A stretch of DNA of 64,000 bases from Eledone cirrhosa (Eukaryota): NCBI GenBank assembly GCA_964016885.1, contig OZ024740.1:91698001-91762000 (forward strand), in the 5' to 3' direction. Position numbers and translations under genes: made by a program. The notes beneath the pieces were generated by a model that saw only the letters and a list, made by a program, of their open reading frames with translations, was not told where the DNA came from and ran no database searches. Positions 1 to 61,074 of this stretch are shown here, in pieces (within the stretch, counting starts at the first letter, position 1; each line of letters opens with the position of its first letter).

Positions 1-94
1 TAACTCACTCAATATGCAAATTAGGCTGCTCAGCCGTTAATTTTCATAAGGAAAGTATATACTTTCGAACGTTCAACTATCTGGCAGATGGGTA

Positions 95-140
95 AACGGT
101 GCTGATGATAGCTAATTAAGCTTGAAACTAGTACATCGTT
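95..140 (+). ncRNA. Type I hammerhead ribozyme (family A)
   Basis: AACGGTG-CTGATGA-T-AGCT-AATTA-AGCT-T-GAAA-CTAG-TA-CATCGTT. Helix I AACGGTG/CATCGTT, palindromic helix III ACTAGT, predicted cleavage after GUA (A133). Helix I extends over 71-158. Confidence 0.85.
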
Positions 141-319
141 CCTGTGTCAGTGTTGAACAAAAAGCTGACGTGGTTGCCTTAACACCGTAGGGCATAAATT
201 CAGGCTGTCCGCTTTGTTGACAAACAAACGAACAAAGCGGCCGGCGTTATAATAAACGTCGGCTAAACTGATGCGTGCATATATGTATGTGTACCTGTAT
301 GCATATGTGTATACATGTA

Positions 320-444
<125 letters not shown>

Positions 445-681
445 GCGTGCTACTGTACGTCTGTATACATATGTGTATGTACGTATACATACATACTTAC
501 GTTTAAGTAAGTGCCATTCTAAGAGTGAGAAATGAAATTTCGTTTTCATTTTTTTCAACTCATCGTTTTCGGTATGGCTGACCGATTTAACTCACTCAAT
601 ATGCAAATTAGGCTGCTCAGCCGTTAATTTTCATAAGGAAAGTATATACTTTCGAACGTTCAACTATCTGGCAGATGGGTA

Positions 682-726
682 AACGGTGCTGATGATAGCT
701 AACAGGCTTGAAACTAGTACATCGTT
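682..726 (+). ncRNA. Type I hammerhead ribozyme (family A)
   Basis: AACGGTG-CTGATGA-TAGCTAACAGGCTT-GAAA-CTAG-TA-CATCGTT. Confidence 0.85.
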
Positions 727-897
727 CCTGTGTCAGTGTTGAACAAAAAGGTGACGTGGTTGCCTTAACACGGTATGGCATAAATTCAGGCTGTTCGCTT
801 TGTTGCCAAACAAACGAACAAAGCGGCCGGCGTTATAATAAACGTCGGCTAAACTGATGCGTGCATATATGTATGTGTACCTGTATGCATATGTGTA

Positions 898-960
<63 letters not shown>

Positions 961-1016
961 GCGTGCTACTGTACGTCTGTATACATATGTGTATGTACGT
1001 ATACATACATACTTAC

Positions 1017-1063
<47 letters not shown>

Positions 1064-6521: not shown

Positions 6522-6591
<70 letters not shown>

Positions 6592-6809
6592 TAAGTTAAA
6601 AATGTACATCCACATATGTATACTGAAATACTAGTATGCATATGAATACACACACGTATACATATGTAGATGTACCGAGTTTTTCACTGGTCACTTTACT
6701 GTGAGTGTCCAGCTATTCTGTATGTAAACACACAGACAAACCGGTTTTTAGAGTCATACTGGTTTTTGAGGAAACACCTTTCCTCTATTCTCCAGAAAGC
6801 CAGACAAGG

Positions 6810-6854
6810 AATATTGAACTAGTTTCGATGTTGTTACATCTCATCAGCAATATT
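6810..6854 (-). ncRNA. Type I hammerhead ribozyme (family B, copy 1)
   Basis: Minus strand: AATATTG-CTGATGA-GATGT-AACA-ACATC-GAAA-CTAG-TT-CAATATT. Perfect helices I and II, palindromic ACTAGT helix III, GUU cleavage triplet. Extended helix I spans 6788-6881. Confidence 0.92.
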
Positions 6855-6900
6855 TACCTATCTTCCGGCCTCTCTAGAGAATCGTAAAAGCACATATCGT

Positions 6901-6958
6901 TATATGCTTTTTCTATGAAAATTAATAGTGGGCAGACTAATTTGCATAGAGCGTGAGT
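6901..6958 (-). promoter_or_regulatory. Conserved octamer-containing block upstream of the HHR (putative snRNA-type promoter), present in every family B unit and in family A (e.g. 3-62, 590-650, 20480-20540)
   Basis: Family B: ATGCAAATTAGTCTGCCCACTATTAATTTTCATAGAAAAAGCATATA. Family A: ATGCAAATTAGGCTGCTCAGCCGTTAATTTTCATAAGGAAAGTATATA. Promoter function is inferred only. Confidence 0.4.
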
Positions 6959-7275
6959 ACGTACCGGTTCAACGGAGACGATAAAAACAAATAACGAAAC
7001 GAAATTAAATTTCGTTTCGTTTGTAACTCACTTTTGTATGACTGACGCTTAAACAATTAAGTTAAAAATGTACATCCACATATGTATACTGAAATACTAG
7101 TATGCATATGAATACACACACGTATACATATGTAGATGTACCGAGTTTTTCACTGGTCACTTTACTGTGAGTGTCCAGCTATTCTGTATGTAAACACACA
7201 GACAAACCGGTTTTTAGAGTCATACTGGTTTTTGAGGAAACACCTTTCCTCTATTCTCCAGAAAGCCAGACAAGG

Positions 7276-7320
7276 AATATTGAACTAGTTTCGATGTTGT
7301 TACATCTCATCAGCAATATT
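7276..7320 (-). ncRNA. Type I hammerhead ribozyme (family B, copy 2)
   Basis: Same motif as copy 1, offset +466. Confidence 0.92.
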
Positions 7321-7741
7321 TACCTATCTTCCGGCCTCTCTAGAGAATCGTAAAAGCACATATCGTTATATGCTTTTTCTATGAAAATTAATAGTGGGCA
7401 GACTAATTTGCATAGAGCGTGAGTACGTACCGGTTCAACGGAGACGATAAAAACAAATAACGAAACGAAATTAAATTTCGTTTCGTTTGTAACTCACTTT
7501 TGTATGACTGACGCTTAAACAATTAAGTTAAAAATGTACATCCACATATGTATACTGAAATACTAGTATGCATATGAATACACACACGTATACATATGTA
7601 GATGTACCGAGTTTTTCACTGGTCACTTTACTGTGAGTGTCCAGCTATTCTGTATGTAAACACACAGACAAACCGGTTTTTAGAGTCATACTGGTTTTTG
7701 AGGAAACACCTTTCCTCTATTCTCCAGAAAGCCAGACAAGG

Positions 7742-7786
7742 AATATTGAACTAGTTTCGATGTTGTTACATCTCATCAGCAATATT
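7742..7786 (-). ncRNA. Type I hammerhead ribozyme (family B, copy 3)
   Basis: Same motif as copy 1. Confidence 0.92.
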
Positions 7787-8207
7787 TACCTATCTTCCGG
7801 CCTCTCTAGAGAATCGTAAAAGCACATATCGTTATATGCTTTTTCTATGAAAATTAATAGTGGGCAGACTAATTTGCATAGAGCGTGAGTACGTACCGGT
7901 TCAACGGAGACGATAAAAACAAATAACGAAACGAAATTAAATTTCGTTTCGTTTGTAACTCACTTTTGTATGACTGACGCTTAAACAATTAAGTTAAAAA
8001 TGTACATCCACATATGTATACTGAAATACTAGTATGCATATGAATACACACACGTATACATATGTAGATGTACCGAGTTTTTCACTGGTCACTTTACTCT
8101 GAGTGTCCAGCTATTCTGTATGTAAACACACAGACAAACCGGTTTTTAGAGTCATACTGGTTTTTGAGGAAACACCTTTCCTCTATTCTCCAGAAAGCCA
8201 GACAAGG

Positions 8208-8252
8208 AATATTGAACTAGTTTCGATGTTGTTACATCTCATCAGCAATATT
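8208..8252 (-). ncRNA. Type I hammerhead ribozyme (family B, copy 4)
   Basis: Same motif as copy 1. Confidence 0.92.
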
Positions 8253-8673
8253 TACCTATCTTCCGGCCTCTCTAGAGAATCGTAAAAGCACATATCGTTA
8301 TATGCTTTTTCTATGAAAATTAATAGTGGGCAGACTAATTTGCATAGAGCGTGAGTACGTACCGGTTCAACGGAGACGATAAAAACAAATAACGAAACGA
8401 AATTAAATTTCGTTTCGTTTGTAACTCACTTTTGTATGACTGACGCTTAAACAATTAAGTTAAAAATGTACATCCACATATGTATACTGAAATACTAGTA
8501 TGCATATGAATACACACACGTATACATATGTAGATGTACCGAGTTTTTCACTGGTCACTTTACTGTGAGTGTCCAGCTATTCTGTATGTAAACACACAGA
8601 CAAACCGGTTTTTAGAGTCATACTGGTTTTTGAGGAAACACCTTTCCTCTATTCTCCAGAAAGCCAGACAAGG

Positions 8674-8718
8674 AATATTGAACTAGTTTCGATGTTGTTA
8701 CATCTCATCAGCAATATT
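8674..8718 (-). ncRNA. Type I hammerhead ribozyme (family B, copy 5)
   Basis: Same motif as copy 1. Confidence 0.92.
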
Positions 8719-9139
8719 TACCTATCTTCCGGCCTCTCTAGAGAATCGTAAAAGCACATATCGTTATATGCTTTTTCTATGAAAATTAATAGTGGGCAGA
8801 CTAATTTGCATAGAGCGTGAGTACGTACCGGTTCAACGGAGACGATAAAAACAAATAACGAAACGAAATTAAATTTCGTTTCGTTTGTAACTCACTTTTG
8901 TATGACTGACGCTTAAACAATTAAGTTAAAAATGTACATCCACATATGTATACTGAAATACTAGTATGCATATGAATACACACACGTATACATATGTAGA
9001 TGTACCGAGTTTTTCACTGGTCACTTTACTGTGAGTGTCCAGCTATTCTGTATGTAAACACACAGACAAACCGGTTTTTAGAGTCATACTGGTTTTTGAG
9101 GAAACACCTTTCCTCTATTCTCCAGAAAGCCAGACAAGG

Positions 9140-9184
9140 AATATTGAACTAGTTTCGATGTTGTTACATCTCATCAGCAATATT
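9140..9184 (-). ncRNA. Type I hammerhead ribozyme (family B, copy 6)
   Basis: Same motif as copy 1. Confidence 0.92.
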
Positions 9185-9605
9185 TACCTATCTTCCGGCC
9201 TCTCTAGAGAATCGTAAAAGCACATATCGTTATATGCTTTTTCTATGAAAATTAATAGTGGGCAGACTAATTTGCATAGAGCGTGAGTACGTACCGGTTC
9301 AACGGAGACGATAAAAACAAATAACGAAACGAAATTAAATTTCGTTTCGTTTGTAACTCACTTTTGTATGACTGACGCTTAAACAATTAAGTTAAAAATG
9401 TACATCCACATATGTATACTGAAATACTAGTATGCATATGAATACACACACGTATACATATGTAGATGTACCGAGTTTTTCACTGGTCACTTTACTGTGA
9501 GTGTCCAGCTATTCTGTATGTAAACACACAGACAAACCGGTTTTTAGAGTCATACTGGTTTTTGAGGAAACACCTTTCCTCTATTCTCCAGAAAGCCAGA
9601 CAAGG

Positions 9606-9650
9606 AATATTGAACTAGTTTCGATGTTGTTACATCTCATCAGCAATATT
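9606..9650 (-). ncRNA. Type I hammerhead ribozyme (family B, copy 7)
   Basis: Same motif as copy 1. Confidence 0.92.
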
Positions 9651-10125
9651 TACCTATCTTCCGGCCTCTCTAGAGAATCGTAAAAGCACATATCGTTATA
9701 TGCTTTTTCTATGAAAATTAATAGTGGGCAGACTAATTTGCATAGAGCGTGAGTACGTACCGGTTCAACGGAGACGATAAAAACAAATAACGAAACGAAA
9801 TTAAATTTCGTTTCGTTTGTAACTCACTTTTGTATGACTGACGCTTAAACAATTAAGTTAAAAATGTACATCCACATATGAAAACCAGTATGACTCTAAA
9901 AACCGGTTTGTCTGTGTGTTTACATACAGAATAGCTGGACACTCACAGTAAAGTGACCAGTGAAAAACTCGGTACATCTACATATGTATACGTGTGTGTA
10001 TTCATATGCATACTAGTATTTCAGTATACATATGTGGATGTACATTTTTAACTTAATTGTTTAAGCGTCAGTCATACAAAAGTGAGTTACAAACGAAACG
10101 AAATTTAATTTCGTTTCGTTATTTG

Positions 10126-10182
<57 letters not shown>

Positions 10183-11348: not shown

Positions 11349-11412
11349 ATTTCATTATATATATTTCAGCGATACCATATTAAAAATATGGCATGCCTTC
11401 TTCAGATAAAAT
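11349..11412 (-). ncRNA. Type I hammerhead ribozyme
   Basis: Minus strand: ATTTTAT-CTGAAGA-AGGC-ATGCCATATT-TTT-AATATGGTAT-CGCT-GAAA-TATATA-TA-ATGAAAT. Confidence 0.72.
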
Positions 11413-15399: not shown

Positions 15400-17100
15400 C
15401 AGTCAGAAGCAACCGTCTCTTAAATGGAATTTTAACGAAGGCAGATTGACCTTAATATCGAAGAATTGTTGAATATATATTATCCGATTCAAACCTTTGT
15501 TATAAATGAAATGTTCCGATTGTTGAAATGAAGATACAAACAACAAGAATGTATAATATTTTATACACATTTTGTTTTCCTTCGTTAAAACATTCTTTAG
15601 AATTATTTGATTTTAACAATTTACCTCTACTTATACTGCTCTAGCTCTGATTTAAGTTCTCAACTTCTTATCAAGCGCGATATATTGCTAATGTTTTCAT
15701 ACATTATAAAGCACTTCACATTTTACTATTATCGTATTTTTTTTTATTAATTCAGTTCACACTGATTTTAGAATGTGATTTCATATTTCAAATCTCGAAT
15801 ATCTAGGTGATAAACATTGTTATATATTATCATATAATTCAAAATATATTACATAATTAGTGGTTCATATTGTTTAGTAAAGTCAATAGAATCGTAACAC
15901 GGTGTCGTCCAATAAGTGTTGTTTTCAATCATAATCTCTGATCTCTTTTGTTGGTGAACACGGTGTTGCGTTCAAAATACAACAACATTTAATTATTATG
16001 TGTTCAAAATATGGCCAATAAATGTTACGTTCGTGAAATAGTAGTCCAGGGCAAAAAATAAGATTGGTTTTCTCTAGCTATAAATAGCTCTAGGTGTTTA
16101 GATTCATAAATAGCTGTAGGTGTTTATAAACAGAACATATTGAAGTAAGATTGTTTCTGATCAATAGAATTGTATCCACTGGGGAATACTCGTTAAAACA
16201 ATAAGAGCTGCATCCCTGAAGATTTCTAGTAATAGGCCCAAGGTATGGGCATGGTCTATGGTTCAATGTGCACGAGGTTTAGCTAAAATGTCAGTTTCGT
16301 TTTATATAGGGCAACTCAAATTTTACACGCGAAAAATCATCAATTGTTATCTAGATTACTATCTTTTTTTTCTTAATAAGTAATGTAAATGACTAGAGTT
16401 TCTTCCAGAATAATCATATTTTAGAGACATTAAAGACCACCTTCAGTTCCAACCATGACTCTTAACTGTTCATTGCCTGTATCTCTCAGAGAAAATATAA
16501 TTAAATCCAATGTAACTCTGAATGTGTGCCCTGGTAAGTTACGATACATGTACATATCATGGCCATCTTCATTAACTCATACAAAAAACATATTTCAATT
16601 AAGATTCTTCAGCCATCCTTTGTTATCTGATGATCGTCATATGTTCCATCAATGTTTTCTCTATACACAATGTTTCTTTGCATAAGTTCCTTTTCTCTAG
16701 TGAATTTGCATCGTACATTTCGATAAATTTTGGCATTACGTTCAGCACATTTCTATAATTGACAATTCATCACACAATTATTATTTTTTCTATTCAGAGA
16801 ATTTCAGTATTTTTTGAGAGAGCACGTGACAAAGATCTTCGAAAAACATTTTCATCAAAGCATGAAACGCTGATTAAATTTTATAGAAGGATTTGCTTGA
16901 CTACAGCGTGTAATGGTTAGTGAAAAATATTTGACACATGGGTTTCAACTGGCGGAAATTATAAGCTGCAGACATCCATAAACATAGATATTAGTATGGA
17001 CATTTGTGGCATCCACAGAAGATTATGTCACGTAATGAGAAAGGAAAATGAATTTAAAAAGAGCATTGAAAATATTACGGTACTAAGCTGGTTTTGATCC
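15400..17100 (-). pseudogene. Possible highly decayed hAT-type transposase remnant
   Basis: Only faint similarity to hAT RWL and C-terminal dimerisation motifs in broken frames. Confidence 0.25.
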
Positions 17101-20013: not shown

Positions 20014-20153
20014 TATATATATATATATATATATAAGTTGAAAAAAAATGAAAGCGAAATTTCATTTCTCACTCTTAGTATGGCACTTACTTAAATGTAA
20101 GTATGTATGTATACGTATACATACATATATGTATACAGACGTACAGTAGCATG

Positions 20154-20237
<84 letters not shown>

Positions 20238-20404
20238 CATATACATATATACATACAGGTACACATACATATATGCACGCATCAGTCTAGCGGACGCTTA
20301 TTATACCGCCGCTTTGTTCGTTTGTCAACAAACTGAACAGCCTGAATTTATGCCATACGGTGTTAAGGCAACGACGTCACCTTGTTGTTCAACACTGACA
20401 CAGG

Positions 20405-20449
20405 AACGATGTACTAGTTTCAAGCTTGTTTCCTATCATCAGCACCTTT
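20405..20449 (-). ncRNA. Hammerhead motif (family A), helix II degraded
   Basis: AAAGGTG-CTGATGA-TAGGAAACAAGCTT-GAAA-CTAG-TA-CATCGTT. Confidence 0.55.
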
Positions 20450-20685
20450 TACCCATCTGCCAGATAGTTGAGCGTTCGAAAGTATATACTTTCCTTATGA
20501 AAATTAACGGCTGAGCAGTCTAATTTGCATATTGAGTGAGTTAAATCGGTCAGGCATACCGAAAACGATAAGTTCAAAAAAATGAAAACGAAATTTAATT
20601 TCTCACTCTTAGTATGGCACTTAGTTAAATGTAAGTATGTATGTATACGTACATACATATATGTATACAGACGTACAGTAGCATG

Positions 20686-20763
<78 letters not shown>

Positions 20764-20930
20764 CATATACATATATACATACAGGTACACATACATATAT
20801 GCACGCATCAGTTTAGCGGACGCTTATTATAACGCCGCTTTGTTCGTTTGTCAACAAACTGAACAGCCTGAATTTATGCCATACCATGTTAAAGCAAACA
20901 CGTCACCTTTTTGTTCAACACTGACACAGG

Positions 20931-20975
20931 AACGATGTACTAGTTTCAAGCTTGTTAGCTATCATCAGCACCGTT
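20931..20975 (-). ncRNA. Type I hammerhead ribozyme (family A)
   Basis: AACGGTG-CTGATGA-T-AGCT-AACA-AGCT-T-GAAA-CTAG-TA-CATCGTT. Confidence 0.85.
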
Positions 20976-21212
20976 TACCCATCTGCCAGATAGTTGAACG
21001 TTCGAAAGTATATACTTTCCTTATGAAAATTAACGGCTGAGCAGCCTTATTTGCATGTTGAGTGAGTTAAATCGGTCAGGCATACCGAAAACGATAAGTT
21101 CAAAAAAAATGAAAACGAAATTTCATTTCTCACTCTTAGTATGGCACTTAGTTAAATGTAAGTATGTATGTATACGTACATACATATATGCATACAGACG
21201 TACAGTAGCATG

Positions 21213-21285
<73 letters not shown>

Positions 21286-21477
21286 TTACATATACACATA
21301 CAGGCCGTATGGCATAAATTCAGGCTGTTCAGTTTGTTGACAAACGGACGATGCGGCGTTATAATAAGCGTCCGCTAAACTGAAATAAACTAAAATATAT
21401 ATATGTGTGTGTGCATGCTACTGTACGTCTGTATACATATATGTATGTACGTATACATACATACTTACATATATATA

Positions 21478-21627: not shown

Positions 21628-22113
21628 TATTTCTGAATTTGTTTAGCAAGATTCTTTATCTGAAAACGTGTGTTGAAACCGATATTGTTATACTTTGGGA
21701 GGGTCATGTTGCCAATCAGAAACACACGCACCAGTGCTCTCACTACAATTTATTATGAATTAAATTTATAAATTTAAGAATTTATAAATTTACGGTTGGT
21801 TATTGGTTGGTCCCACCACCGGACGGTTGTTCATATATTGTCAAAGTTCTTTCGTCACTCATTCTGGGACATCTTCAATGACACACAAAAACAAGATGGC
21901 GTAGGACAGAACAAAGGAGAGGCAGAAAACAAAGAAAATAATCCCCAGTCACTGAAGAAATTTGACAATATATGAACAACCGTCCGGTTGTTGAACTAGC
22001 CAACCAACCGGAAATTTATAAATTCTTAAATGTATAAATTTAATTTATAATAAATTGGAGTGAAACAACTGGTGCGTGTGTTTCTTATTGGCAACATGAC
22101 CTTCCCAAAGTAT

Positions 22114-27679: not shown

Positions 27680-27851
27680 TGTTATACTTTGGGAGGGTCA
27701 TGTTGCCAATAAGAAACACACGCACCAGTTGCTTTCACTTCAATTTATTATATATTTATAAATTTATAAATTTACAAATCTACAAATCTACAAACTTATA
27801 AATTTCAGGTTGGTTGGTTGGTTCCACAACCAGATAATTGTTTATATATAT

Positions 27852-27896
27852 AGTCATAGTCCTTTCGTCACACACTCTGTGACCTCTTCAGTGACT
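27852..27896 (-). ncRNA. Type I hammerhead ribozyme in pseudo-LTR
   Basis: AGTCA-CTGAAGA-G-GTCACA-GAGTG-TGTGAC-GAAA-GGAC-TA-TGACT. Confidence 0.72.
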
Positions 27897-28124
27897 GGGG
27901 ATTCCTTTCTTCGTTTCTGTGCCTTTCCTTTCTTCTATCCTACGCCATTTTGTTTCTGTGTGTGTGTTGTGTGCTCAGTTTGCGCATGCCCCACATCCGG
28001 GTGTCTGTGTGTTTGTGTTCATTTTTCTACTTTTCTATTTATATTTTACTATTTGTTTATTTAATTATTTATTTATTGTTGGTTGGTTGTTTGTTCTATG
28101 TGTGTGTGTGTTTTCATTTTGTTC

Positions 28125-30098
28125 TTAATTGTAAGTTGTGATGTTGCTGCTCCACTCATATTTTCTATTTAATTTTGGTTTTAATTCTTTAATGCTTACT
28201 GCCTCTGTAATTTGCCTAAACATTGCGTCTTTTCTGTGTGTGGATTCTATTTTTATTTCTATGCTCTCTAATCTACTCCTGTGTTCTATCTTAGCATGTT
28301 GGTAGAGCACAGATGATTCTTTATTATCTTGGAGGTCTCGCCAGTGTTCATTTATTCGTTCCCCTATACTACGAGCTGTCTCACATATGTACACTATATT
28401 TTTGTTTCTACATTGTCCTTCAGTACATCTCATGTTATACACTACATTTCTAGTTCTACAGTTAATATGGGGGCTTATTTTACAGGTTATACATTTCTTA
28501 TCTATACATGAGGGTCTTTGGAACGGGTATGTCTTGCTAATAAGTGTTTTTACGGAGGTACCAGGTCTCTCTACTATCTTAATATTGAGATTATGTTTAT
28601 TTAGGGCCCTTCTAAATTTGTAGGCTAGTTCGCCTTTAGGGGTTGTATTGATGAACATTACACTCTGGTATTTATTGCTATCATACCATGAGTTTATTCT
28701 ATTGGCCTTGTTCCTAGTTCTTTCTATTCTATTCCAAAATTTGCTCCTATACAAGGGGAAGGTCCCATTTATGTCATTATTTACCATTTTTTCCCATTTG
28801 GTTCTGGCTCCTTTATACACTCTGATTCTATCTCTCTGATTGTAGCCAGAGAACTGCATACGGTGGATGAAGTGTTGTATGTGTCTCTCTAGTTCTTCGG
28901 GGTTGCACATGCGGGACACATTTCTCATCACCCGTACCAAATCCGCAATCAGTATATTGATTTTGGTATGGTCCGAAATGGCTGAGTTTCGGTGGATCAG
29001 ATGTTTGGAAGCCATGGGTTTCGCATAATGGGAATGGAGGATTTGTTTTTGGTTGTTAATGGTATCTAACCAGAGCTCTGTGTCTAGTACAGGTAATCGA
29101 TGGTTGGGGTGTCTACTTGGGTAGTCTATAGTAACTCTAATGCTCTGGTGGATGGAGTTTGCTATTTGCTGGATACTTTCCATTGTGTTTTTCTCTAGTT
29201 CCTGACTGTTCTTTAGTGGGGGTGTCTTAACTACGATGTTTATATCATCTACGTAGCGGGAGTACATTATCAGGGTTAAGCTGTCTTCTAATTGTTCATT
29301 AAGTTTTTGTTTAAGTCTACTGTCCCACCATACCATGAATAAGTTAGCTATGTCGCCTGCAATGCTAACACCAATGGCAGCCCCTTCCTCTTGGGAATGT
29401 GTTTTACCATTAAATTTGAACATATGTTCCTTAAGGGTTAGTTTTATGCTGGCCCCTACCGCATGTGCAATCATTTTCTTCAGTTCATCGTGGTTTTCGG
29501 GTGTCCGTATGTCTCTGGTCCACCCGTTCCATCTATCTGTGTGGGTTTTCTTGGCCATTGAGGTAATGGTAGGTGGTCTGTCTCTTGCTGGTCTTGTAGG
29601 GCACAGGTTGCTAAGGTCATAAGTGTCTAGGTAACTATTACTATGGGTAAGCTTAAGTAGAAGTCCCAGCTCACTGGTATCAATCCCACGGAACTCAACC
29701 TTGCTCTCGCTGATCATTTCTTCGCATTTCACCACAGCAAAATCCACGTCAATAGATGGATACAGGGACACAACATCCATACTGCCTATTATGCAGTTTG
29801 TTAGGTCCCCAGATCGCTTACCTGCGCCGATTCTGCTGAGAAGGTCCTCCGTGCTGTCACACACATCTGGGGACATCTCAATGATGGGGCGTATGATCAG
29901 GGAGAGGAAGTAGGACAGTCTGTAGTTACTAGCAATGTTAGCCCCACTGACTGACCGTGTTGGTGGTCCCGCGACAGGGTCCCAGCACGTTTTATGGTCT
30001 TTTCGAAGCCCATACAACAGCGGCACGTCATTGTTCCAGGCCTGGAAGTTGTTGGCAGTCCTTTTGTTGGGCTGCATTATATTCGTCCACATCACCAT
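28125..30098 (-). CDS. PLE reverse transcriptase plus GIY-YIG endonuclease (C-terminal part of a frameshifted ORF)
   Basis: LYGLRKDHK, SMDVVSLYPSI, QEEGAAIG..GDIANLFM, YSRYVDD, NVVYNMRC..VYICETARSIGERINEH, RQITEAVSI..LN. Confidence 0.9.
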   Translation of the reverse strand: MVMWTNIMQPNKRTANNFQAWNNDVPLLYGLRKDHKTCWDPVAGPPTRSVSGANIASNYRLSYFLSLIIRPIIEMSPDVCDSTEDLLSRIGAGKRSGDLTNCIIGSMDVVSLYPSIDVDFAVVKCEEMISESKVEFRGIDTSELGLLLKLTHSNSYLDTYDLSNLCPTRPARDRPPTITSMAKKTHTDRWNGWTRDIRTPENHDELKKMIAHAVGASIKLTLKEHMFKFNGKTHSQEEGAAIGVSIAGDIANLFMVWWDSRLKQKLNEQLEDSLTLIMYSRYVDDINIVVKTPPLKNSQELEKNTMESIQQIANSIHQSIRVTIDYPSRHPNHRLPVLDTELWLDTINNQKQILHSHYAKPMASKHLIHRNSAISDHTKINILIADLVRVMRNVSRMCNPEELERHIQHFIHRMQFSGYNQRDRIRVYKGARTKWEKMVNNDINGTFPLYRSKFWNRIERTRNKANRINSWYDSNKYQSVMFINTTPKGELAYKFRRALNKHNLNIKIVERPGTSVKTLISKTYPFQRPSCIDKKCITCKISPHINCRTRNVVYNMRCTEGQCRNKNIVYICETARSIGERINEHWRDLQDNKESSVLYQHAKIEHRSRLESIEIKIESTHRKDAMFRQITEAVSIKELKPKLNRKYEWSSNITTYN

Positions 30099-30954
30099 AT
30101 GGGCATTGAGGGCTTTTTCTCTATCCTCATGCTCCTGTGGTGTTACCTCTCTTGTGTTAGTGATGTGGGTTGCATTGCCTGGATGTAGTTTGGCAGACTG
30201 TCAACCGACATTCTGCCAGACTTGTCTGTTGGAGAACATGCTATCTCTCCATTACGCGAGCGCTGCATGAGCTTACGCAAGCCATTTGCGGATTCTTCTC
30301 CCAGTTGCTGGGCCTCTATTCTATTATGCGTCTTGCTATACTGTTCTATAATATTTCTAAGTTCGGATTTAGCTATACTAAATTGTGCTTCTGTTTGTTC
30401 ATCGACCTGCGACGGCAACTGCGTGCGTTTGTTAAATGGCAAAGTCGTGGCGTGGACTCGTCGTAGGTCGAATGATTTATCGGAGGGGTTATAAAACGGA
30501 GAGTTCCAGGCTGCTGCTTTATGTGTACTAGTGCTATTATTATTGTTAGTTGTGTTGTTTCTATTTCTATTTCCACCAACAGCCTCAGCTTCATGGTTGT
30601 TTCTATGTCTCTCATAATTACTCCTGTCTCTTTCCACTGGCTCAATGTTGTTATCTACCCTATTTTGTGTGTCTGTGTGTTCGTCTTGGTTATTCTCTTT
30701 GTCCTTAGTCTCCCATCTCCTTTTACTTTTAATCCTATTACTTTCTCTTATTTCTCTGATTTCTGTGCTACTGTCATTACTTGTTTTCTGTGTCTGTGTG
30801 TTTGTTAAGAGTGTGGTGGTGGTGAGAGGCATTGAATGCGTGTGTGTTGTTGTTGTTGATGTGTGTTGTTGTTGATGTGTGTTGTTGTTGTCTCCGTGTG
30901 TATGTGTGTTATCGTTGTTGTGTGTGTTGTTATTGTTGTTTGTGTCTGCGTGTC

Positions 30955-31210
30955 TGTTGTTGTTGTATCTGGGTATGTTGCTATTGTTGTTGTTGTTGAT
31001 GTGTGTGTTGTTGTTATTGTTGTCTCCGTGTGTGTTATCGTTGTTGTGTGCGTTGTTATTGTTGTTTGTGTCTGCGTGTCTGTTGTTGTTGTATCTGGGT
31101 ATGTTGCTATTGTTGTTGTTGTATCTGGGTATGTTGCTATTGTTGTTGTTGTATCTGGGTATGTTGCTATTGTTGTTGTTGTATCTGGGTATGTTGCTAT
31201 TGTTGTTGTT
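30955..31210. repeat. 30-bp minisatellite (TGTTGTTGTTGTATCTGGGTATGTTGCTAT) within a (GTT)-rich tract in the PLE N-terminal region
   Basis: Four tandem copies at 31081-31200 plus one near 30955. Confidence 0.85.
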
Positions 31211-32179
31211 GTTGTTATTGTTGTTTGTGTCTGTGTGTCTGTTGTTGTTGGGATGTGTGTTGTATATGTGTGTGCGTATATTGTTGCTTTTGTTTTTGAT
31301 GCTCCAGCGTAGTTTTGTAAATTATTTTTCTATTTCTGACAGACAACTAATCATATTTACCTTCTTGAATGTCGCAAATTTGGGTGGCAGACGTAACACA
31401 GACATTTCATTATTATCTACTTCCGTGTTTCCATAAATGTTGGTATTTTCGTTGTTGAACTCTTCAGATAATGAGGTGTCGGCCATGTTGATACCGTCAA
31501 TTTTGTCGGGATATCTATTGGTATGCTCTATAGTATCCCGATTTAGCTTTGCCTGTTTAAGCCACTTTAATTTTCTGTTAAAGTGCTTATCACATTCTTG
31601 AGTAATGTACTGTTCTTCGGGGCGTATAAGGCTTATAAATGTTAGTTTTTCTGCTGGTGTGGTGATTTTAGATATTTCTTGTATTAGGTTACGCTTTAGT
31701 TTTTCTTGATGACTTAATTCTCTATAGATCTTCTTTTTTATGTTTAGAATTAAAGTTCGTTTTAGCCTATCTGCTTGTTTTTTGGTGAGTTGTAATCTTC
31801 TAACGTCGGTATTTATGGTGTTGGTGTAGATTCTAGAAGTGGTGCACAGTTTTATGAAGCGTAGTTGTCGAGATGTTATGGTTTTTCTTAGACAACAGAA
31901 CATGGTGGTTTTCAGTATCTTGTTAGCCTGGCTAAGGCTTACGATATTTCGTTTCTGAATTTGTTTAGCAAGATTATTTATCTGAAATCGTGTTTTGAAA
32001 CCGATATTGTTATACTTTGGGAGGGTCATGTTGCCAATAAGAAACACATGCACCAGTAGCATTCACTTCAATTTATTATATATTTATAAATTTATAAATT
32101 TACAAATCTACAAATCTACAAACTTATACATTTCTGGTTGGTTGGTTGGTTCCACAACCAGATAGTTGTTTATATATAT

Positions 32180-32224
32180 AGTCATAGTCCTTTCGTCACA
32201 CACTCTGTGACCTCTTCAGTGACT
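32180..32224 (-). ncRNA. Type I hammerhead ribozyme in pseudo-LTR
   Basis: Same motif as 27852-27896. Confidence 0.72.
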
Positions 32225-34155
32225 GGGGATTTCTTTCTTCATTTCTGTGCCTTTCCTTTCTTCTATCCTACGCCATTTTGTTTCTGTGTGTGTGTTGTGT
32301 GCTCAGTTTGCGCATGCGCCACATCCGGGTGTCTGTGTGTGTTTATGTTCATTTTTCTATTTTTCCATTTTTATTTTTCTATTTGTTTATTTATTTATTT
32401 ATTTATTGTTGGTTGGTTGTTTGTTCTATGTGTGTGTGTGTGTGTTTTCATTTTGTCCTGTGTGTGTTTTCATTTTGTGTGTGTTTTCAATTGTAAGTTG
32501 TTTGTTCTATGTGTGTGTGTGTGTTTTCATTTTGTCCTTAATTGTAAGTTGTGATGTTGCTGTTCCACTCATATTTTCTATTTAATTTTGGTTTTAATTA
32601 TTTTATGCTTACTGCCTCTGTAATTTGCCTAAACATTGCGTCTTTTCTGTGTGTGGATTCTATTTTTATTTCTATGCTCTCTAATCTACCCCTGTGTTCT
32701 ATCTTAGCATGTTGGTAGAGCACAGATGATTATTTATTATCTTGGAGGTCTCGCCAGTGTTTATATTGGAATAGAATAGAAAGAACTAGGAACAAGGCCA
32801 ATAGAATAAACTCATGGTATGATAGCAATAAATACCAGAGTGTAATGTTAATCAATACAACCCCTAGAGGCGAACTAGCCTACAAATTTAGAAGGGCCCT
32901 AAATAAACATAATCTCAATATTAAGATAGTAGAAAGACCTGGTACCTCCGTAAAAACACTTATTAGCAAGACATACCCGTTCCAAAGACCCTCATGTATA
33001 GATAAGAAATGTATAACCTGTAAAATAAGCCCCCATATTAACTGTAAACCTAGAAATGTAGAGTATAGCATGAGATGTACCGAAGGACAATGTCGAAACA
33101 AAAATATAGTGTACATAGGTGAGACAGCTCGTAGTATAGGGGAACGAATAAATGAACACTGGCGAGACCTCCAAGATAATAAAGAATCATCATTTCTTAA
33201 TTATATATGTTTTCAATGACACCCTCTAAAGCTTTTTTTTAAACGTAGATTAATAACCATTACCTGATTTTAGAAAAAAATTATCCTATTCAAGACGATG
33301 TTTAAGCATTCATATTTCTTTCGACTAAATAATTAATTAATCACACAATAACTCTTAAAAACCTTTATCGATTAACAAATAAAATTGGAGTTATCTTCCT
33401 TTCTCAATTATATAAACTTCGTTAATTTAATTTAAAACATTCTCAATGTCGAACAAGTTATCCAAATATATAAAATCATCATTTTAACTACCTATTTATT
33501 TACATAAAATAGAAAATCAACATATCTCGTAACTCATATTAAAAACAACCACATAAAGCTTCAACTACCTATTTACCTATTTAATTATCTACATTAAACA
33601 CAAAAACAACATTCCTCGTAACTCATATTATAAACAACTAATAATTGCAACTTATCTTTTTAATAAAAATACATATGCTATTATTAAAATATATATAGGT
33701 ATTTATATATTTAACCCACTACAATATTATAATCAGATAATAAATACTTACAAACATAATTCTACATATAACTATATACATAATATAGGTAAATATTCAA
33801 ATTTATTTCCCCCAAATTAACCTTTATAAGTGGTCTTCTTTTTCCTATTTTCTTTTTTTCCTTTTTACTTTTCCTTCTTCTTCTTCTTTTTCCTTTTCAT
33901 TTTTCTTTTTCTTCTTTTTTTCTTTTTTTTTCTTTTTTCTTGTTTAATTCTTTCTCTGTTACTAATACATCTAAACTTTCCATAGCGTTTAAAATAACGG
34001 GTTTTCAAGCATATAACTCAAACTTATTTACATATTCATATGCATACACTTCCATAAGTTTGAAAAATCCGTTCTTTAATCTCACCTCCCAAGGAAAATT
34101 CAACTGATAAGGTATGTTTTCCTGGGCTATGTCAACGTTTATAAAACACTCTTTG

Positions 34156-45739: not shown

Positions 45740-45746
<7 letters not shown>

Positions 45747-46430
45747 GTATGGGTTTACCGAACATTTATTATAATCCTCGGTTTGTTTGTAATCAAACAA
45801 CCCGAATTTCTAGCCGAATAGTGTTAGGCAACCATCGTTGCCCTTTTGTTCAACACTGACAAATGAACGGTGAACTGGTTTCTAGCTTATTAGCTGTCAT
45901 TAGCACCGTATACCTTCCTGTCAGTCGATTGAACGTTTTAAAGTATATACTTTCCTTCTGCATATTAACGACTGAGTAGCCTAATTTAAATATCGAGTGA
46001 ATAGTCGGCCGGGCTTACCGAAAACGATAAATGGAAAAATGAAATTTCATTTCTCACTCTTAGTACGGCTGATACTTAAATATAAGTATGTATACGTACA
46101 TAAACATATGTATACAGACGTACAGTAGTATGTATATACATAAATACATGCACACATATATATATATATGTACGTATGGGTTTACCGAACATTTATTATA
46201 ATGTTCGGTTTGTTTGTAGACAAACAACCCGAACTTTTAGCCGTACAGTGTTCTGCAACCATCTTTGCCCTTCTGTTCCACACTTACAAACAAACCGAGC
46301 ATTATAATAAATGTTCGGTCAACCCATACGTACATATATATGTGCGCATGTATGTATGTATGTATATACATACTACTGTACGTCTGTTTACATATCTGTA
46401 TGTACGTATACATACATACTTATATTTATA
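45740..46430 (-). mobile_element. Diverged family A copy with inverted tail; HHR core mutated (CTAATGA) at 45866-45910
   Basis: Homologous to 1-1020. Minus strand: TACGGTG-CTAATGA-CAGCTAATAAGCTA-GAAA-CCAG-TT-CACCGTT. A fragment also lies at 44660-44750. Confidence 0.7.
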
Positions 46431-57149: not shown

Positions 57150-58420
57150 TACACCTTTTATATATATAAATGATAAATGTATATATATATATATTAGTAA
57201 AAATGAAAAGAAAATGCTGACAATTTTTTCCCAGTGAAAAATAGCTTAATTTTGGAATAAGTATGAGTTAGTAATAAGTATAATTTAGTATTCAGTTTTA
57301 GTTTTAAGTTTTTACTGGTTGCGCATTTCTTATGCTTTTCAAAAATAATTTTGAGATAGAGTGCTCGTGATTTTTGCTCTTATCTGATCAGTTTTGTAAA
57401 TTATTTCTGTTTTATGTGAAAAAAGTGGCTTGGGAGGTATTAAGATGTGGTTGGTTGTTGAATGTCACGTGTAAACGCACTCTTTTTAAGACTATATAGA
57501 GCATTTGTAGATTTTTCCAAGTTGAAGGATAAGTATTTACCCTTAATTTTATTCTGAGTTAATACCTATGGGTTTTTTCCCTAGATTACTCAACATCTGT
57601 GGATAAAATTTCTGACTTAACTTTTTTTGAATTGAGAATGAATTATTTTCCCATATCTTAGGTTAAATATTTTCCATCTTGACGTAATAGTCACTTATAT
57701 GTATGAATTACTGTTGGCTTCTTGCTCACGTTAATTTCTCTATTTTCATATATATATATGTGGTTACCTCCGATTCAACCCGGAATAACGTACTATATAT
57801 ATATATATATAAACACATTTAAACATATGTGCTCAAATCGTAAGGGACCAGATTTGAACACATATATGTTAATATCTGTGTTTATCTTTCTTTTATGTTC
57901 AATTATATTACACGGCTCAGAAAAAAAACTTTCTAAGAGACTATTTTGAGTTTCTAACTCAATATATACATTTGATATCATCGACTCCTTTCACTTTTGG
58001 AAAGCTAATTTAAATGTCGTGTAAACTTGGCTGCTATTTTTAGTAGCGTATGTTTATGGGACACGCTAGGTTTTGATGCTATGTGCGTTATTTTATATTC
58101 GCACACTCTTCAGTCCTCTGAGATACTTAGAAGTGAAGGGTTTACTAACGTTAAACCCACTGATGAGCAAAGAATTGGTAATTTCCTTTGCTAAAATTGC
58201 GAAACAGCCTACCAAATGTTGTCTGTGTATCTGGCAGTTGCCCAATATCGGTATCTATTTGTTTTCTTGATTTATCATTTTTAATTGATTCTGGCAAACC
58301 CTATTGTTAATAGGTAGAATCTTTTTCACCCTAGCGAATCTAGTTCCTGACAATTTGTACACATATATGTTTATATCTGTGTTTATCTTTCTTTTGTATT
58401 CAGTTATATTACAGGGCTCA
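57150..58420 (-). pseudogene. Decayed PLE-like N-terminal/RT-start fragment with internal duplication
   Basis: PCNI.E.KRKINTDINIYV duplicated (~57860-57915 and ~58360-58415); GTTTCTAACTCAATATAC duplicated; weak RT-start motifs. Confidence 0.4.
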
Positions 58421-61074
58421 CATGATAGCAGGATCCGTCCTAAACGCGACAGCAGGTGTTCGACATGAACCAACATGTCAGCAATTTTCGGACACTGGAC
58501 GAGTGCGTGCAGGACAGTTTCGTCGCCCTCCGCGCATATCGGACATGCCCGACTGACGGCACCTCCATGCCTGTAGAGTTTATCCCGAACTGGCAAGGCT
58601 CCTCGGTAGCACTGCCAGGCCAGATATTTCTGGAAGTTGTCCATAGGTCCTGGCCAAAAAGTTCTTCCGAAGGGATTGGCTAGTTGATTTTCGTCGACGC
58701 CTAGAGTTTCTCCAAGTACGTCGTCGCTCTTCCCCTCCACTAATCCTCTATAGAACGCCGAGGTGGAGTTTCCACCGATCACATTGCTCGATTGGTCGAG
58801 GGCTGTGAGCGCCTGAAGACATTCAATTTAACCGGTCCGTCTATCCAGCGTCCGACGACGCTGTTGGAAGGCATGGACCTGCCTCCCCAGGTGCCGAGCT
58901 GCAGGTCCACTGACTTTTGCTGGTTGATCATTGCTCCTGTCACTGCTTCGTATTCTCTTAGTGTAGTGCCGATCGCCTCGATGTGTTTGGCGTTCGACAC
59001 AACTACGGTGACATCGTCCGCATATGCTGACACAAATCTCCCGCATCCTAGTTCGCGGGGGACGCACCTCAACTTCTCCAGTTTGTCCAGTAATGGCTCG
59101 ATAGTCAATACGTACATGAGGGACGAGAGGGGACATCCTTGGCGGACCGAGCGCATGATGTTGAACGGTTTCGACAGGTGACCGTTCACTCTCACCACAG
59201 AGCAGATGTCATTGTGCATGGCAGCGATCCAACCTCTGAAGGCGGGCCCAAAGCCAGCCGCCCTCAGGACTGCCGCTAGGTAACGATGGTCGACCCTATC
59301 GAAAGCTTTCGACTGATCTAAATTGATCAAGGACCCACCCGTGCCAGGTTATCTAGCTACCCTCTCTATGATGTATCGCATGAGGTGGAGGTTGTCGTGG
59401 ATGGATCTGTCGGGAATGGCGCATGTCTGCGCCTCTCCCACCAGACCACCAACGACAAGCGCCAACCTCCTTGCTAGCACCTTGGCCAAAATCTTGAACT
59501 CTGTGTTTAGCAGAGTCATGGGCCGGACATTTTCTATGTTATCCCCCTTGTTCGGATCCTTTCTCAGCAGTGCCACCGCTCCTCGGCTCACAGAACTGGG
59601 AATTCTCTCGTTCTGTTGCCAGTTGCAGTAGACGTCCGCCAAGAGGCCTCCGAACAAGTCTGGCATCTGTACGTAAAGTTTATAGGGCAGACCATCCAAA
59701 CCTTGCGATTTACCCCTTGTGCAGCCAGTCATTGCCTCCCTTACTTCAGCGGCTGTTATCGGCTTTTCGCAACATCTCGCCTCAGTCGCCGAGAGCCGCG
59801 GCAGTCCGTCGAGGTAGACACTAAAGTCCATCCCTCGACCCGGCCCACCTCTGCCCCCCAACAGCTGAGCGAAGTGTCGCTGAAAAGCTTCACACATTTG
59901 CCCGAGATCGAGTAGCATGTGCCCGTCGTGGTCCATCAAAGACGGGATCGTGGCTTTGTTGCCACGACGCGCCTCCGCCACTCGGGCCCATTGAACGGCT
60001 TTCGTCCCCTCGTGTCTGAGAGCACGCACCCTTGCTCTGACAACGCAGCCTTCGTGCTTTGCATTGAAGAATTGGTCAAGGGCCAATTTCGCCGCTAGCA
60101 CGTCGGTCGCAATGCCTTTGCTAAGCGCCTCGTGTAATTTTCTAACTAGTTCTCCCTCTGCTCTATTTTTCTCTATTGCTTAAGCCTTACTAAACTTAAT
60201 GGATTCTATTCTAATCGCTCCTTTCAGAGCAAACCACCACTTGTTGTTGGCGATGGCCCCCGTCAACGCCCGCTTAACTAGTTCGCTAATCCGGTCTCTG
60301 TAGGACTTGCGCGCTGGTAAGGACGCGTTTAGCTTCCAGTAGCCGGGTCCTCGTCTATGAAGCCTATCTAAGTCAAGCACACAGATCACGAATTTGTGGT
60401 CCGTGTAGCTGACTATCTTGAATTGTGGACAGCCTATGCAAGACCTATCTATTTCCCTACAAAATATTCTATGTAGATATGATCTGGATGACCAATGCGA
60501 TTTGTCCAAGTCCACATTGGCACATTCGGGAAATCCAATCGGTACCTGTCAGACAGTTCAAAACGCCTGAGCAGGTTGGTGAGGCTCTTGCACCCTCCAC
60601 CCCTATCCGCTAATCCCACACAGTCCCAGCGTGCATCTAAGATCCCGTTCCAGTCGCCCACTAACATTAAAGAGCGGGACGTTCCAAGAAAGGTCTCCAG
60701 ACGCCGGAAGAAATCAGGCCGCCCTGCTCCTGTCGGGGCATAGACGGCCACTAGCCTGAAAGCTTGGCGTCTCCGTTGGTCACGTCCAGCACCACTAACT
60801 TACCATCTGGGTCCAGGAAGTTGGCCCGCATGGCGAGATCCAAACCTCTCCGAAAAAGCACAGCAACTCCTCCACCCGATCCAAGACGGCTGGGAGATGC
60901 GTACACATCGTAGCCGCCGAAGATCGGTGCGAAGGCACGTGCTTCGGAGATTCTGGTCTTGCTGATGGCCACTACATCTATGTTTAGTGACCTGAGGTCG
61001 TTGAGCAGGTGACCCTGCTTCCATCACGGCCCCAAGCCACGCGCATTTATGCTGCCTATTCTGAGTGAGGTCAT
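58420..61074 (-). pseudogene. Tx1 ORF2 (APE-RT-Zn finger), frameshifted and internally deleted
   Basis: Starts MTSLRIGSINARGLG at 61074; ORF pieces 60751-60972, 60449-60751, 60180-60515, 59349-60101, 58779-59330, 58255-58782. Confidence 0.88.

Follow-up and report, generated by a model that had tools for sequence, protein, structure and literature searches.

The stretch of DNA analysed here (the window, 64,000 nucleotides, G000:C1:91698001-91762000, from a 3.0-Gb animal genome) opens with a promoter-like block which, judging from its sequence, is copied from host snRNA-type genes and lies inside the units of non-LTR retrozymes. The block probably has a promoter function. In the reading which we prefer, and to which we give a probability of roughly 0.55, it would be a compact built-in snRNA-type promoter, more likely to be used by Pol II than by Pol III, combined with a proposed mechanism of retrozyme propagation.

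Repeat units, families and the conserved block

The window starts with a two-unit forward array, the upstream continuation of which is an inverted two-unit array (L142). The features identified are listed in Table 1.

Table 1. Features of the window, with positions counted from its first nucleotide.
Position	Strand	Feature	Details
13-66	+	Promoter-like block	Inside non-LTR retrozyme units
13-24	+	12-mer TATGCAAATTAG	Octamer plus flanks; 5' arm of predicted hairpin 1
29-33	+	CTCAG, candidate PSE core	Resembles the TCAG core of host U1/U2/U4/U5
37-48	+	TTAATTTTCATA box	3' arm of predicted hairpin 1; sequence-variable
51-66	+	Palindrome GAAAGTATATACTTTC (predicted hairpin 2)	Includes TATA-like TATATAC at 56-62
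85-86	+	C/A step 30 nt past the TATA start	Predicted start A86, from the host rule of TATA + 30/31
81-149	+	Type I hammerhead, family A	Core CTGATGA 102-108, GAAA 124-127
13-599	+	Full family A unit	587 bp; internal (TA)n; T7 run 549-555
600-1021	+	Second family A unit	12-mer 600-611, TATA 643-649, core 689-695; ends TTTA at (TA)n
6587-9880	-	Family B array	466 bp x 7.1, 99% matches; 12-mer at 9744-466n, hammerhead core at 9643-466n
9881-10130	+	Inverted partial copy	5' side of the B array; ends at (TA)n
20030-21400	-	Family A array	12-mers at 21057 (CATGCAAATAAG) and 20531
27680-32700	-	Broken Penelope-like element, Neptune-like	Hammerheads 32219 and 27891 in terminal repeats; ends (TA)n
45740-46430	-	Decayed family A copy	12-mer (45992) and hammerhead core mutated

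The arrays consist of short head-to-tail units (310-590 bp) with a single type I hammerhead motif per unit: in each unit of families A and B, a minimal hammerhead of this type occurs on the same strand, 89 nt (A) or 101 nt (B) past the start of the 12-mer. The family A hammerhead at the start of the window has a palindromic ACTAGT stem III and a predicted cut after A133, and its stems I and II fold in prediction; none of the window hammerheads matched Rfam at the gathering thresholds. No ORF was found in the A and B arrays, where the overlapping frames are only those spanning microsatellites. The monomers are predicted to fold better than shuffled sequences (z = -9.66 for B and -6.45 for A), with 67-71% of the bases paired when the units are folded as circles. 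By these features, the anatomy of the repeats is that of the metazoan non-LTR retrozymes (Cervera and de la Pena 2020, PMC7229834; Li, Clavereau and Pollet 2026, bioRxiv 10.64898/2026.07.22.740005), with which they share the short tandem units, the single type I hammerhead, the low GC content, the self-pairing, the lack of ORFs and the co-occurrence of Penelope-like elements, a link already published. The unit sizes are at or above the 170-400 nt reported for metazoan retrozymes. No look-alikes were found in the other genomes of the scan.

In a random sample of 112 evenly spaced 10-kb stretches (1.12 Mb) from contigs C1-C7, 19 family A and 6 family B hammerheads were detected, which extrapolates to roughly 50,000 and 16,000 hammerheads genome-wide if the sample is representative. 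The sampled hammerheads (91 hits) form 26 clusters: the 12-mer is present in 4, a Pol II-type set of elements (see below) in 1 and neither in 21. Counted per hammerhead hit, the 12-mer is found at 5/11 in family A, 4/5 in B, 2/4 in C and 1/1 in E. Another hammerhead family (window 55658 on the minus strand, L180:6124; 5 sampled loci) carries TATAAATA about 30-40 nt before the core.

The octamers reported in the initial annotation at 14 and 601 (+), at 6940+466n (7 copies, -) and at 20523 and 21049 (-) were all located as claimed. The window contains 13 exact octamers versus 5.89 +/- 2.69 in shuffled sequences (1 of 100 shuffles reaches 13), 11 of them within repeat units and two, at 16704 and 46509, outside; this excess in the raw count comes from the repeat copies only. 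The composite pattern of 12-mer plus TATA gave 3 matches in the window, with 0.02 expected. The 112 stretches contain 21 exact 12-mers, versus 0-4 in five shuffles, and CTGANGA occurs 80-113 nt downstream of 14 of these 21, while 12-mers with one mismatch show no enrichment genome-wide (82, versus 93-107 in shuffles).

At one locus (L212, minus strand, offset 8810), TATGCAAATTAG occurs with a TATA-like word at offset 48, which is the spacing of host type-3 genes, and without a hammerhead; it is possibly an unannotated type-3 gene or a relic. Words resembling the 12-mer were also seen in three other repeats, namely TATGCTAATT(A/G)G, TATGCAAATGAG and TATGCAAATAAG (L173, L180, L185 and L199; L208, L309 and L015; L198 and L287), with no hammerhead core behind them.

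Three features are common to families A, B, C, D, E and I: the 12-mer, a C at offset 18 and, at offset 43-44, a TATA-like word. The spacers of these families (offsets 12-79) show 26-57% identity, and the hammerhead core lies 89 to 104 nt from the 12-mer, depending on the family. A Y/R step, identified by eye, was found 30-31 nt past the TATA-like word in all six families, and since it lies at varying distances from the hammerhead, the layout appears to be anchored on the promoter side. Families C, D and E are related (47-57% identity), so that perhaps two or three independent lineages are represented; family D consists of one decayed copy and family I of one truncated locus. In run X1, family A shows no variant at 5% or more in its 12-mer, its core or its TATA, and two in the box; the four runs consist of contigs without visible starts or ends, and are informative on variants, not on expression. 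Among 98 distinct family A copies, one column of the 12-mer is variable, TTGG occurring in 11 copies, mostly from one array.

Two observations of the initial annotation are accurate in themselves and lose their weight as evidence. The upstream ACTCAC is indeed shared by A and B, but it is not kept in families C, D, E and I, and it is predicted to pair with GTGAG farther upstream. In the decayed copy, which differs by 17% from its nearest relative, the octamer (TATTTAAATTAG) and the core (CTAATGA) are both mutated, as had been noted. The 98 family A copies (both lost in 1, the octamer only in 9, the core only in 4) give no evidence linking the two losses, and given these counts the joint loss, proposed as functional evidence, is uninformative.

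Host small-RNA gene promoters and the choice of polymerase

When aligned with host snRNA-type promoters, as had been proposed, the block was found to match them in sequence and geometry. The host 12-mer, with the consensus TATG(C/G)(A/T)AAT(T/G)AG, lies at -77 to -80 in seven type-3 promoters: those of U6 (L001, L002 and the C19 array), U6atac (L131), MRP (L252) and tRNA-Sec (L253 and L254). In all seven, the TATA box lies 47-49 nt past the start of the 12-mer and the gene starts 30-31 nt past the TATA box, and six of them have a CCT core at offset 16-18. The C19 array is counted through one representative, its 25 further copies not being counted separately. The rows left out (U6 L014, L015 and L143-L154; U6atac L132-L140; tRNA hits L255-L258) lack the element and appear by eye to be retrocopies or other tRNAs; since the best-scoring hit was retained for every one of the four gene families, the circularity of this choice is limited. 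In the C19 array (L007, L008, L010-L013), an insertion of about 190 bp was seen at the TATA box of 6 of the 26 fetched copies, the TATA word being repeated on either side.

In the host U1, U2, U4 and U5 genes, a TCAG-like core is present at -55 to -58 (18/18), with AATT 32-34 nt before it (18/18), a TATA-like word 23-31 nt after it (12/18) and a distal element, TTACYTCCCTTG, 201-214 nt before it (7/18). The 12-mer was not found within 110 nt of the start in any of 17 Pol II-type upstream regions, one of which has a word with two mismatches at -208. The octamer had been taken for the distal element of snRNA promoters; this does not apply to the present host, in which the octamer occupies a proximal position (-77 to -80) and TTACYTCCCTTG, near -260, is the distal element. 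The host Pol II snRNA genes (L061-L130 upstreams) carry no octamer and have a 3' box resembling AAA(T/A)CAGA; in the 12/18 with a TATA-like word, this word stands near -30. A single RNase P RNA gene (L141:1180-1500) has a Pol II-type upstream region with AATCAGT at -68 and two distal elements and, unlike U6, MRP and tRNA-Sec, lacks the 12-mer.

The proposal that each unit carries its own snRNA-like promoter gains from the host match in sequence and geometry, but a plain U6-type promoter does not fit, because the TATA offset is 43-44 in the six families versus 47-49 in the seven host type-3 promoters, that is, 4-5 nt closer and with no overlap. At offsets 16-20, the families have CTCAG, CCCAC, ATCAC, ATCTG, ATCAG and TCCAG, and a YCAG-like core stands 26-27 nt before the TATA-like word in 6/6 families, as in host U1/U2/U5. 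These cores are closer to the Pol II core than to the type-3 CCT in a post hoc test on families which are related to each other (summed Pol II-core score 20.0 versus -29.6 +/- 10.3). The match is good in A, D and E and weak in B, C and I (0.2, -0.7 and 0.8), the host tRNA-Sec gene L253 scoring 3.9 on the same matrix, above the last three. The type-3 CCT core is not matched by the families (-5.1 to 2.5, versus -1.0 to 7.0). In a genome this rich in AT, TATA-like words are frequent, and those of the block are also part of a predicted hairpin. Neither AATT at 32-34 nt before the core nor the distal TTACYTCCCTTG was found in the clusters of families A, B, C and E; in families A-I the 12-mer, which among the host genes sampled was seen at type-3 genes only, stands in place of AATT at core-33 and of the distal element.

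Alternatively, Pol III might use the block as a promoter of the U6 type (type 3); transcription would then mostly stop at T4-T7, and the full-unit circles would arise from occasional read-through. The restriction of the 12-mer to type-3 genes, its distance to the core, which is that of type-3 genes, the TATA-like box with a Y/R at +30 and the position of the first T4, 273-350 nt past the predicted start, all agree with this alternative, which we nevertheless regard as unlikely: the TATA offset and the unmatched CCT core speak against it, the T4-free stretch, as a sign of Pol III, does not stand out from shuffled sequences (261-586/2000 shuffles), and young family A has an internal T7 yet makes arrays. 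Oligo-T is described as the Pol III terminator (PMC4494074), and a Pol III transcript must pass the T5-T7 runs of the units for the promoter to be copied, whereas these runs, together with the absence of a host-type 3' box, suit read-through by Pol II. Use of Pol II, or mixed use of the two polymerases, appears more probable than that of Pol III alone. In Xenopus, as Lescure reportedly found in 1991, a 4-bp shift of the PSE decides between Pol II and Pol III. Small differences in the PSE help to decide the polymerase in insects, according to PMC1761439, and the U6 TATA box switches vertebrate snRNA promoters to Pol III, according to PMC2582628. The vertebrate H1 RNA promoter, described as compact and as having both Pol II and Pol III activities, differs from the present block in belonging to a single-copy host gene, with no ribozyme and with an additional Staf site (PMC11340601).

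Family H (L206, G000:C3:190.00 Mb) is a very young 310-bp hammerhead repeat, without 12-mer or octamer, in which a Pol II-type set was found in 11/11 copies: a distal element located 200 nt ahead of the core ACCAGT (201-214 nt in 7 host genes), AATT 33 nt before that core, and TATA 27 nt after it. The proximal pattern has 8 other matches in 2.24 Mb of strand. The family is dispersed, with 100% identical arrays on several contigs. The distal element of the family falls within stem I of the hammerhead, on its 3' strand, and would act for the unit that follows.

It seems quite improbable that the 12-mer is a POU-factor site, acting as an enhancer or chromatin opener, or the relic of a captured snRNA-type promoter, with no initiation in the unit. 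The octamer is a known Oct-1 site of vertebrate snRNA enhancers, as given in PMC2582628, the core and TATA matches are degenerate and the families share ancestry, all of which speaks for such a role; yet the spacing is constant within 1 nt despite the low identity of the spacers, and family H independently carries the complete Pol II-type set.

Predicted RNA hairpins, array ends and the Penelope-like element

The TTAATTTTCATA box, which the initial annotation had put forward as a PSE, is a near reverse complement of the 12-mer, its predicted pairing partner. In run X1, about 54% of the family A depth carries TTAATATGCATA in its place; the box variants T629A and T631G restore a C-G pair, bringing the predicted energy of the hairpin from -8.9 to -11.9 kcal/mol. 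The box also differs among the other families, and in family C a GAG of the 12-mer is matched by a CTC in its partner. Since the box pairs with the 12-mer and varies, it appears to be a matter of structure and not a PSE, and the folding of the promoter motifs into two RNA hairpins would account for it. When the families were folded singly, hairpin 1 was better than in shuffles (p<0.01) in 3/8 rows, which do not include D or E, and hairpin 2 (p<0.05) in 6/8 rows. In the 8-row alignment, the fixed-column pairing of hairpin 1 reached 58.8%, which is not above shuffles, the string being out of register and the loop lengths differing. No equivalents of hairpins 1 and 2 were obtained on folding the host promoters.

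Array ends, which read TTA or TA, abut (TA)n runs, and an inverted piece is frequent on the 5' side; there are two preferred ends, about 30-45 and 95-110 nt before the 12-mer (17 and 13 distinct end flanks in B and 21 at site 2 in A, site 1 in A not being counted; the broader tally is not de-duplicated across overlapping loci). In the anole element Poseidon, reverse transcription is described as starting at two internal sites and as needing downstream RNA, which extends about 55-60 nt past these sites (PMC11167929). As the two start sites of Poseidon parallel the two preferred array ends, a second, RNA-level role for hairpin 1 is possible.

Could the block act only as RNA, its two hairpins being bound by a Penelope RT or a host protein, and transcription being driven by flanking promoters? 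Both hairpins are predicted in the repeats and absent from the host promoters and, with array ends 30-110 nt upstream of the 12-mer, hairpin 1 could fall in an RT-bound region such as that described for Poseidon (PMC11167929). We find this very doubtful, however, because it would not explain why the 12-mer coincides with a DNA promoter element of the host, nor why TATA and Y/R stand at a fixed distance from it, family H spreads without the block, and the Penelope-like element of the window has only a word with two mismatches to the 12-mer, in its coding end. The initial annotation had mentioned a recognition signal for the Penelope RT as an alternative: given the host promoter match, this is unlikely to be the sole role of the block, and possible as a second one.

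The Penelope-like element itself, which contains no 12-mer, gave a weak RVT_1 match (E 3.1e-4); on inspection by eye, its GIY-YIG-like end is preceded by a cysteine linker, which makes it Neptune-like in the sense of PMC8557442. It shares no significant sequence or tail with families A, B and H (best E 0.081), and its protein gave 0 hits among solved structures. Next to the family A array, at about 21635-21800, there is a piece of the terminal repeat of this same Penelope-like element. AT-rich hammerhead motifs with a palindromic TATATA stem III were seen in the window at 11405 (-), 11528 (+), 34164, 54689 and 6233 (-); motifs of this kind often form inverted pairs, lack the 12-mer and are probably Penelope terminal repeats. 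Broken LINE-type RT frames are also present, at 58255-60179 (-) of the window (RVT_1 E 5.2e-19, zf-RVT E 4.7e-9).

Proposed mechanism, related systems and significance

In the preferred reading, that of a compact snRNA-type promoter within the unit, a POU-domain factor and SNAPc/TBP would bind the block, and transcripts would begin some 16-30 nt ahead of the hammerhead core (at A86 here) and extend into the unit that follows. A one-unit RNA would be excised by two hammerheads, probably acting as a dimer, and would then be ligated into a circle; the circle would contain the whole unit, so that a promoter otherwise lying upstream would be inside the template. A Penelope-type RT/endonuclease would copy the circle into (TA)n, and the outcome would be head-to-tail arrays, 5' inversions and a promoter of its own for each copy.

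Newt satellite 2, the promoter of which has an octamer/PSE layout, was rightly chosen as a precedent in the initial annotation. It is described as a hammerhead repeat transcribed by Pol II from an snRNA promoter (Coats, Zhang and Epstein 1994, cited in PMC2220036), and it shares with the present repeats the tandem organization, an internal snRNA-type promoter (predicted here) and a weak palindromic stem III; amphibian hammerheads with such a stem are reported to be weak alone and active as dimers (PMC7229834). The present repeats differ from it in having an unrelated sequence, at least seven families, host-specific elements and two promoter layouts. With the host type-3 promoters (U6, U6atac, MRP and tRNA-Sec), they share the 12-mer and a TATA box 30-31 nt before the start, and differ in the TATA box being 4-5 nt closer, YCA(G) instead of CCT, the hairpins, and the location of the promoter within the copied unit. 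With the host Pol II snRNA promoters (U1, U2, U4 and U5), they share the TCAG-like core, weakly in B, C and I, and its distance to the TATA-like word and, in family H alone, AATT and the distal element, whereas families A-I lack AATT, the distal element and the 3' box. Two other short retroposed elements are comparable: the schistosome satellite is also tied to small-RNA transcription, but through a Pol III internal promoter, according to PMC2220036, while SINEU is described in PMC4494074 as having snRNA gene sequence inside, with no promoter found. No report of an snRNA-type promoter in invertebrate retrozymes was found in the literature covered, supplements and most subscription papers lying outside its scope. 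What is new here, on the predicted structures and spacings, is the box as a hairpin arm and a non-U6 spacing with a Pol II-like core.

Retrozyme circles have been reported to be abundant in all the tissues tested, yet no host promoter is named in the main texts of the two retrozyme studies cited above: the word 'promoter' occurs twice in that of PMC7229834, both times for T7, and 0 times in that of bioRxiv 10.64898/2026.07.22.740005. Tentatively, we suggest that the retrozyme radiation may have co-opted the host snRNA machinery in two ways, giving a chimeric promoter lineage, in which the type-3 octamer block would be combined with a Pol II-type core and spacing, a combination present at no host gene sampled, and a complete U1-type lineage, in which a unit would take its distal element from the preceding one in the array. 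Circularity of the template would let the upstream promoter retrotranspose, and the same bases would double as hairpins, possibly for the Penelope RT.

The genome offers exact candidates (a start site, three motifs and their spacing), along with a natural comparison of two promoter layouts. The U6-type and U1-type promoter grammar of the host is defined, and the 4-5 nt spacing difference may bear on the choice of polymerase in an invertebrate. The case shows a way for an element to retain a promoter lying upstream of its start, which ordinary SINEs cannot do. If the two-way takeover is true, it would account for animal retrozymes being expressed constitutively at high levels, and snRNA-type promoters would have been seeded by the tens of thousands.
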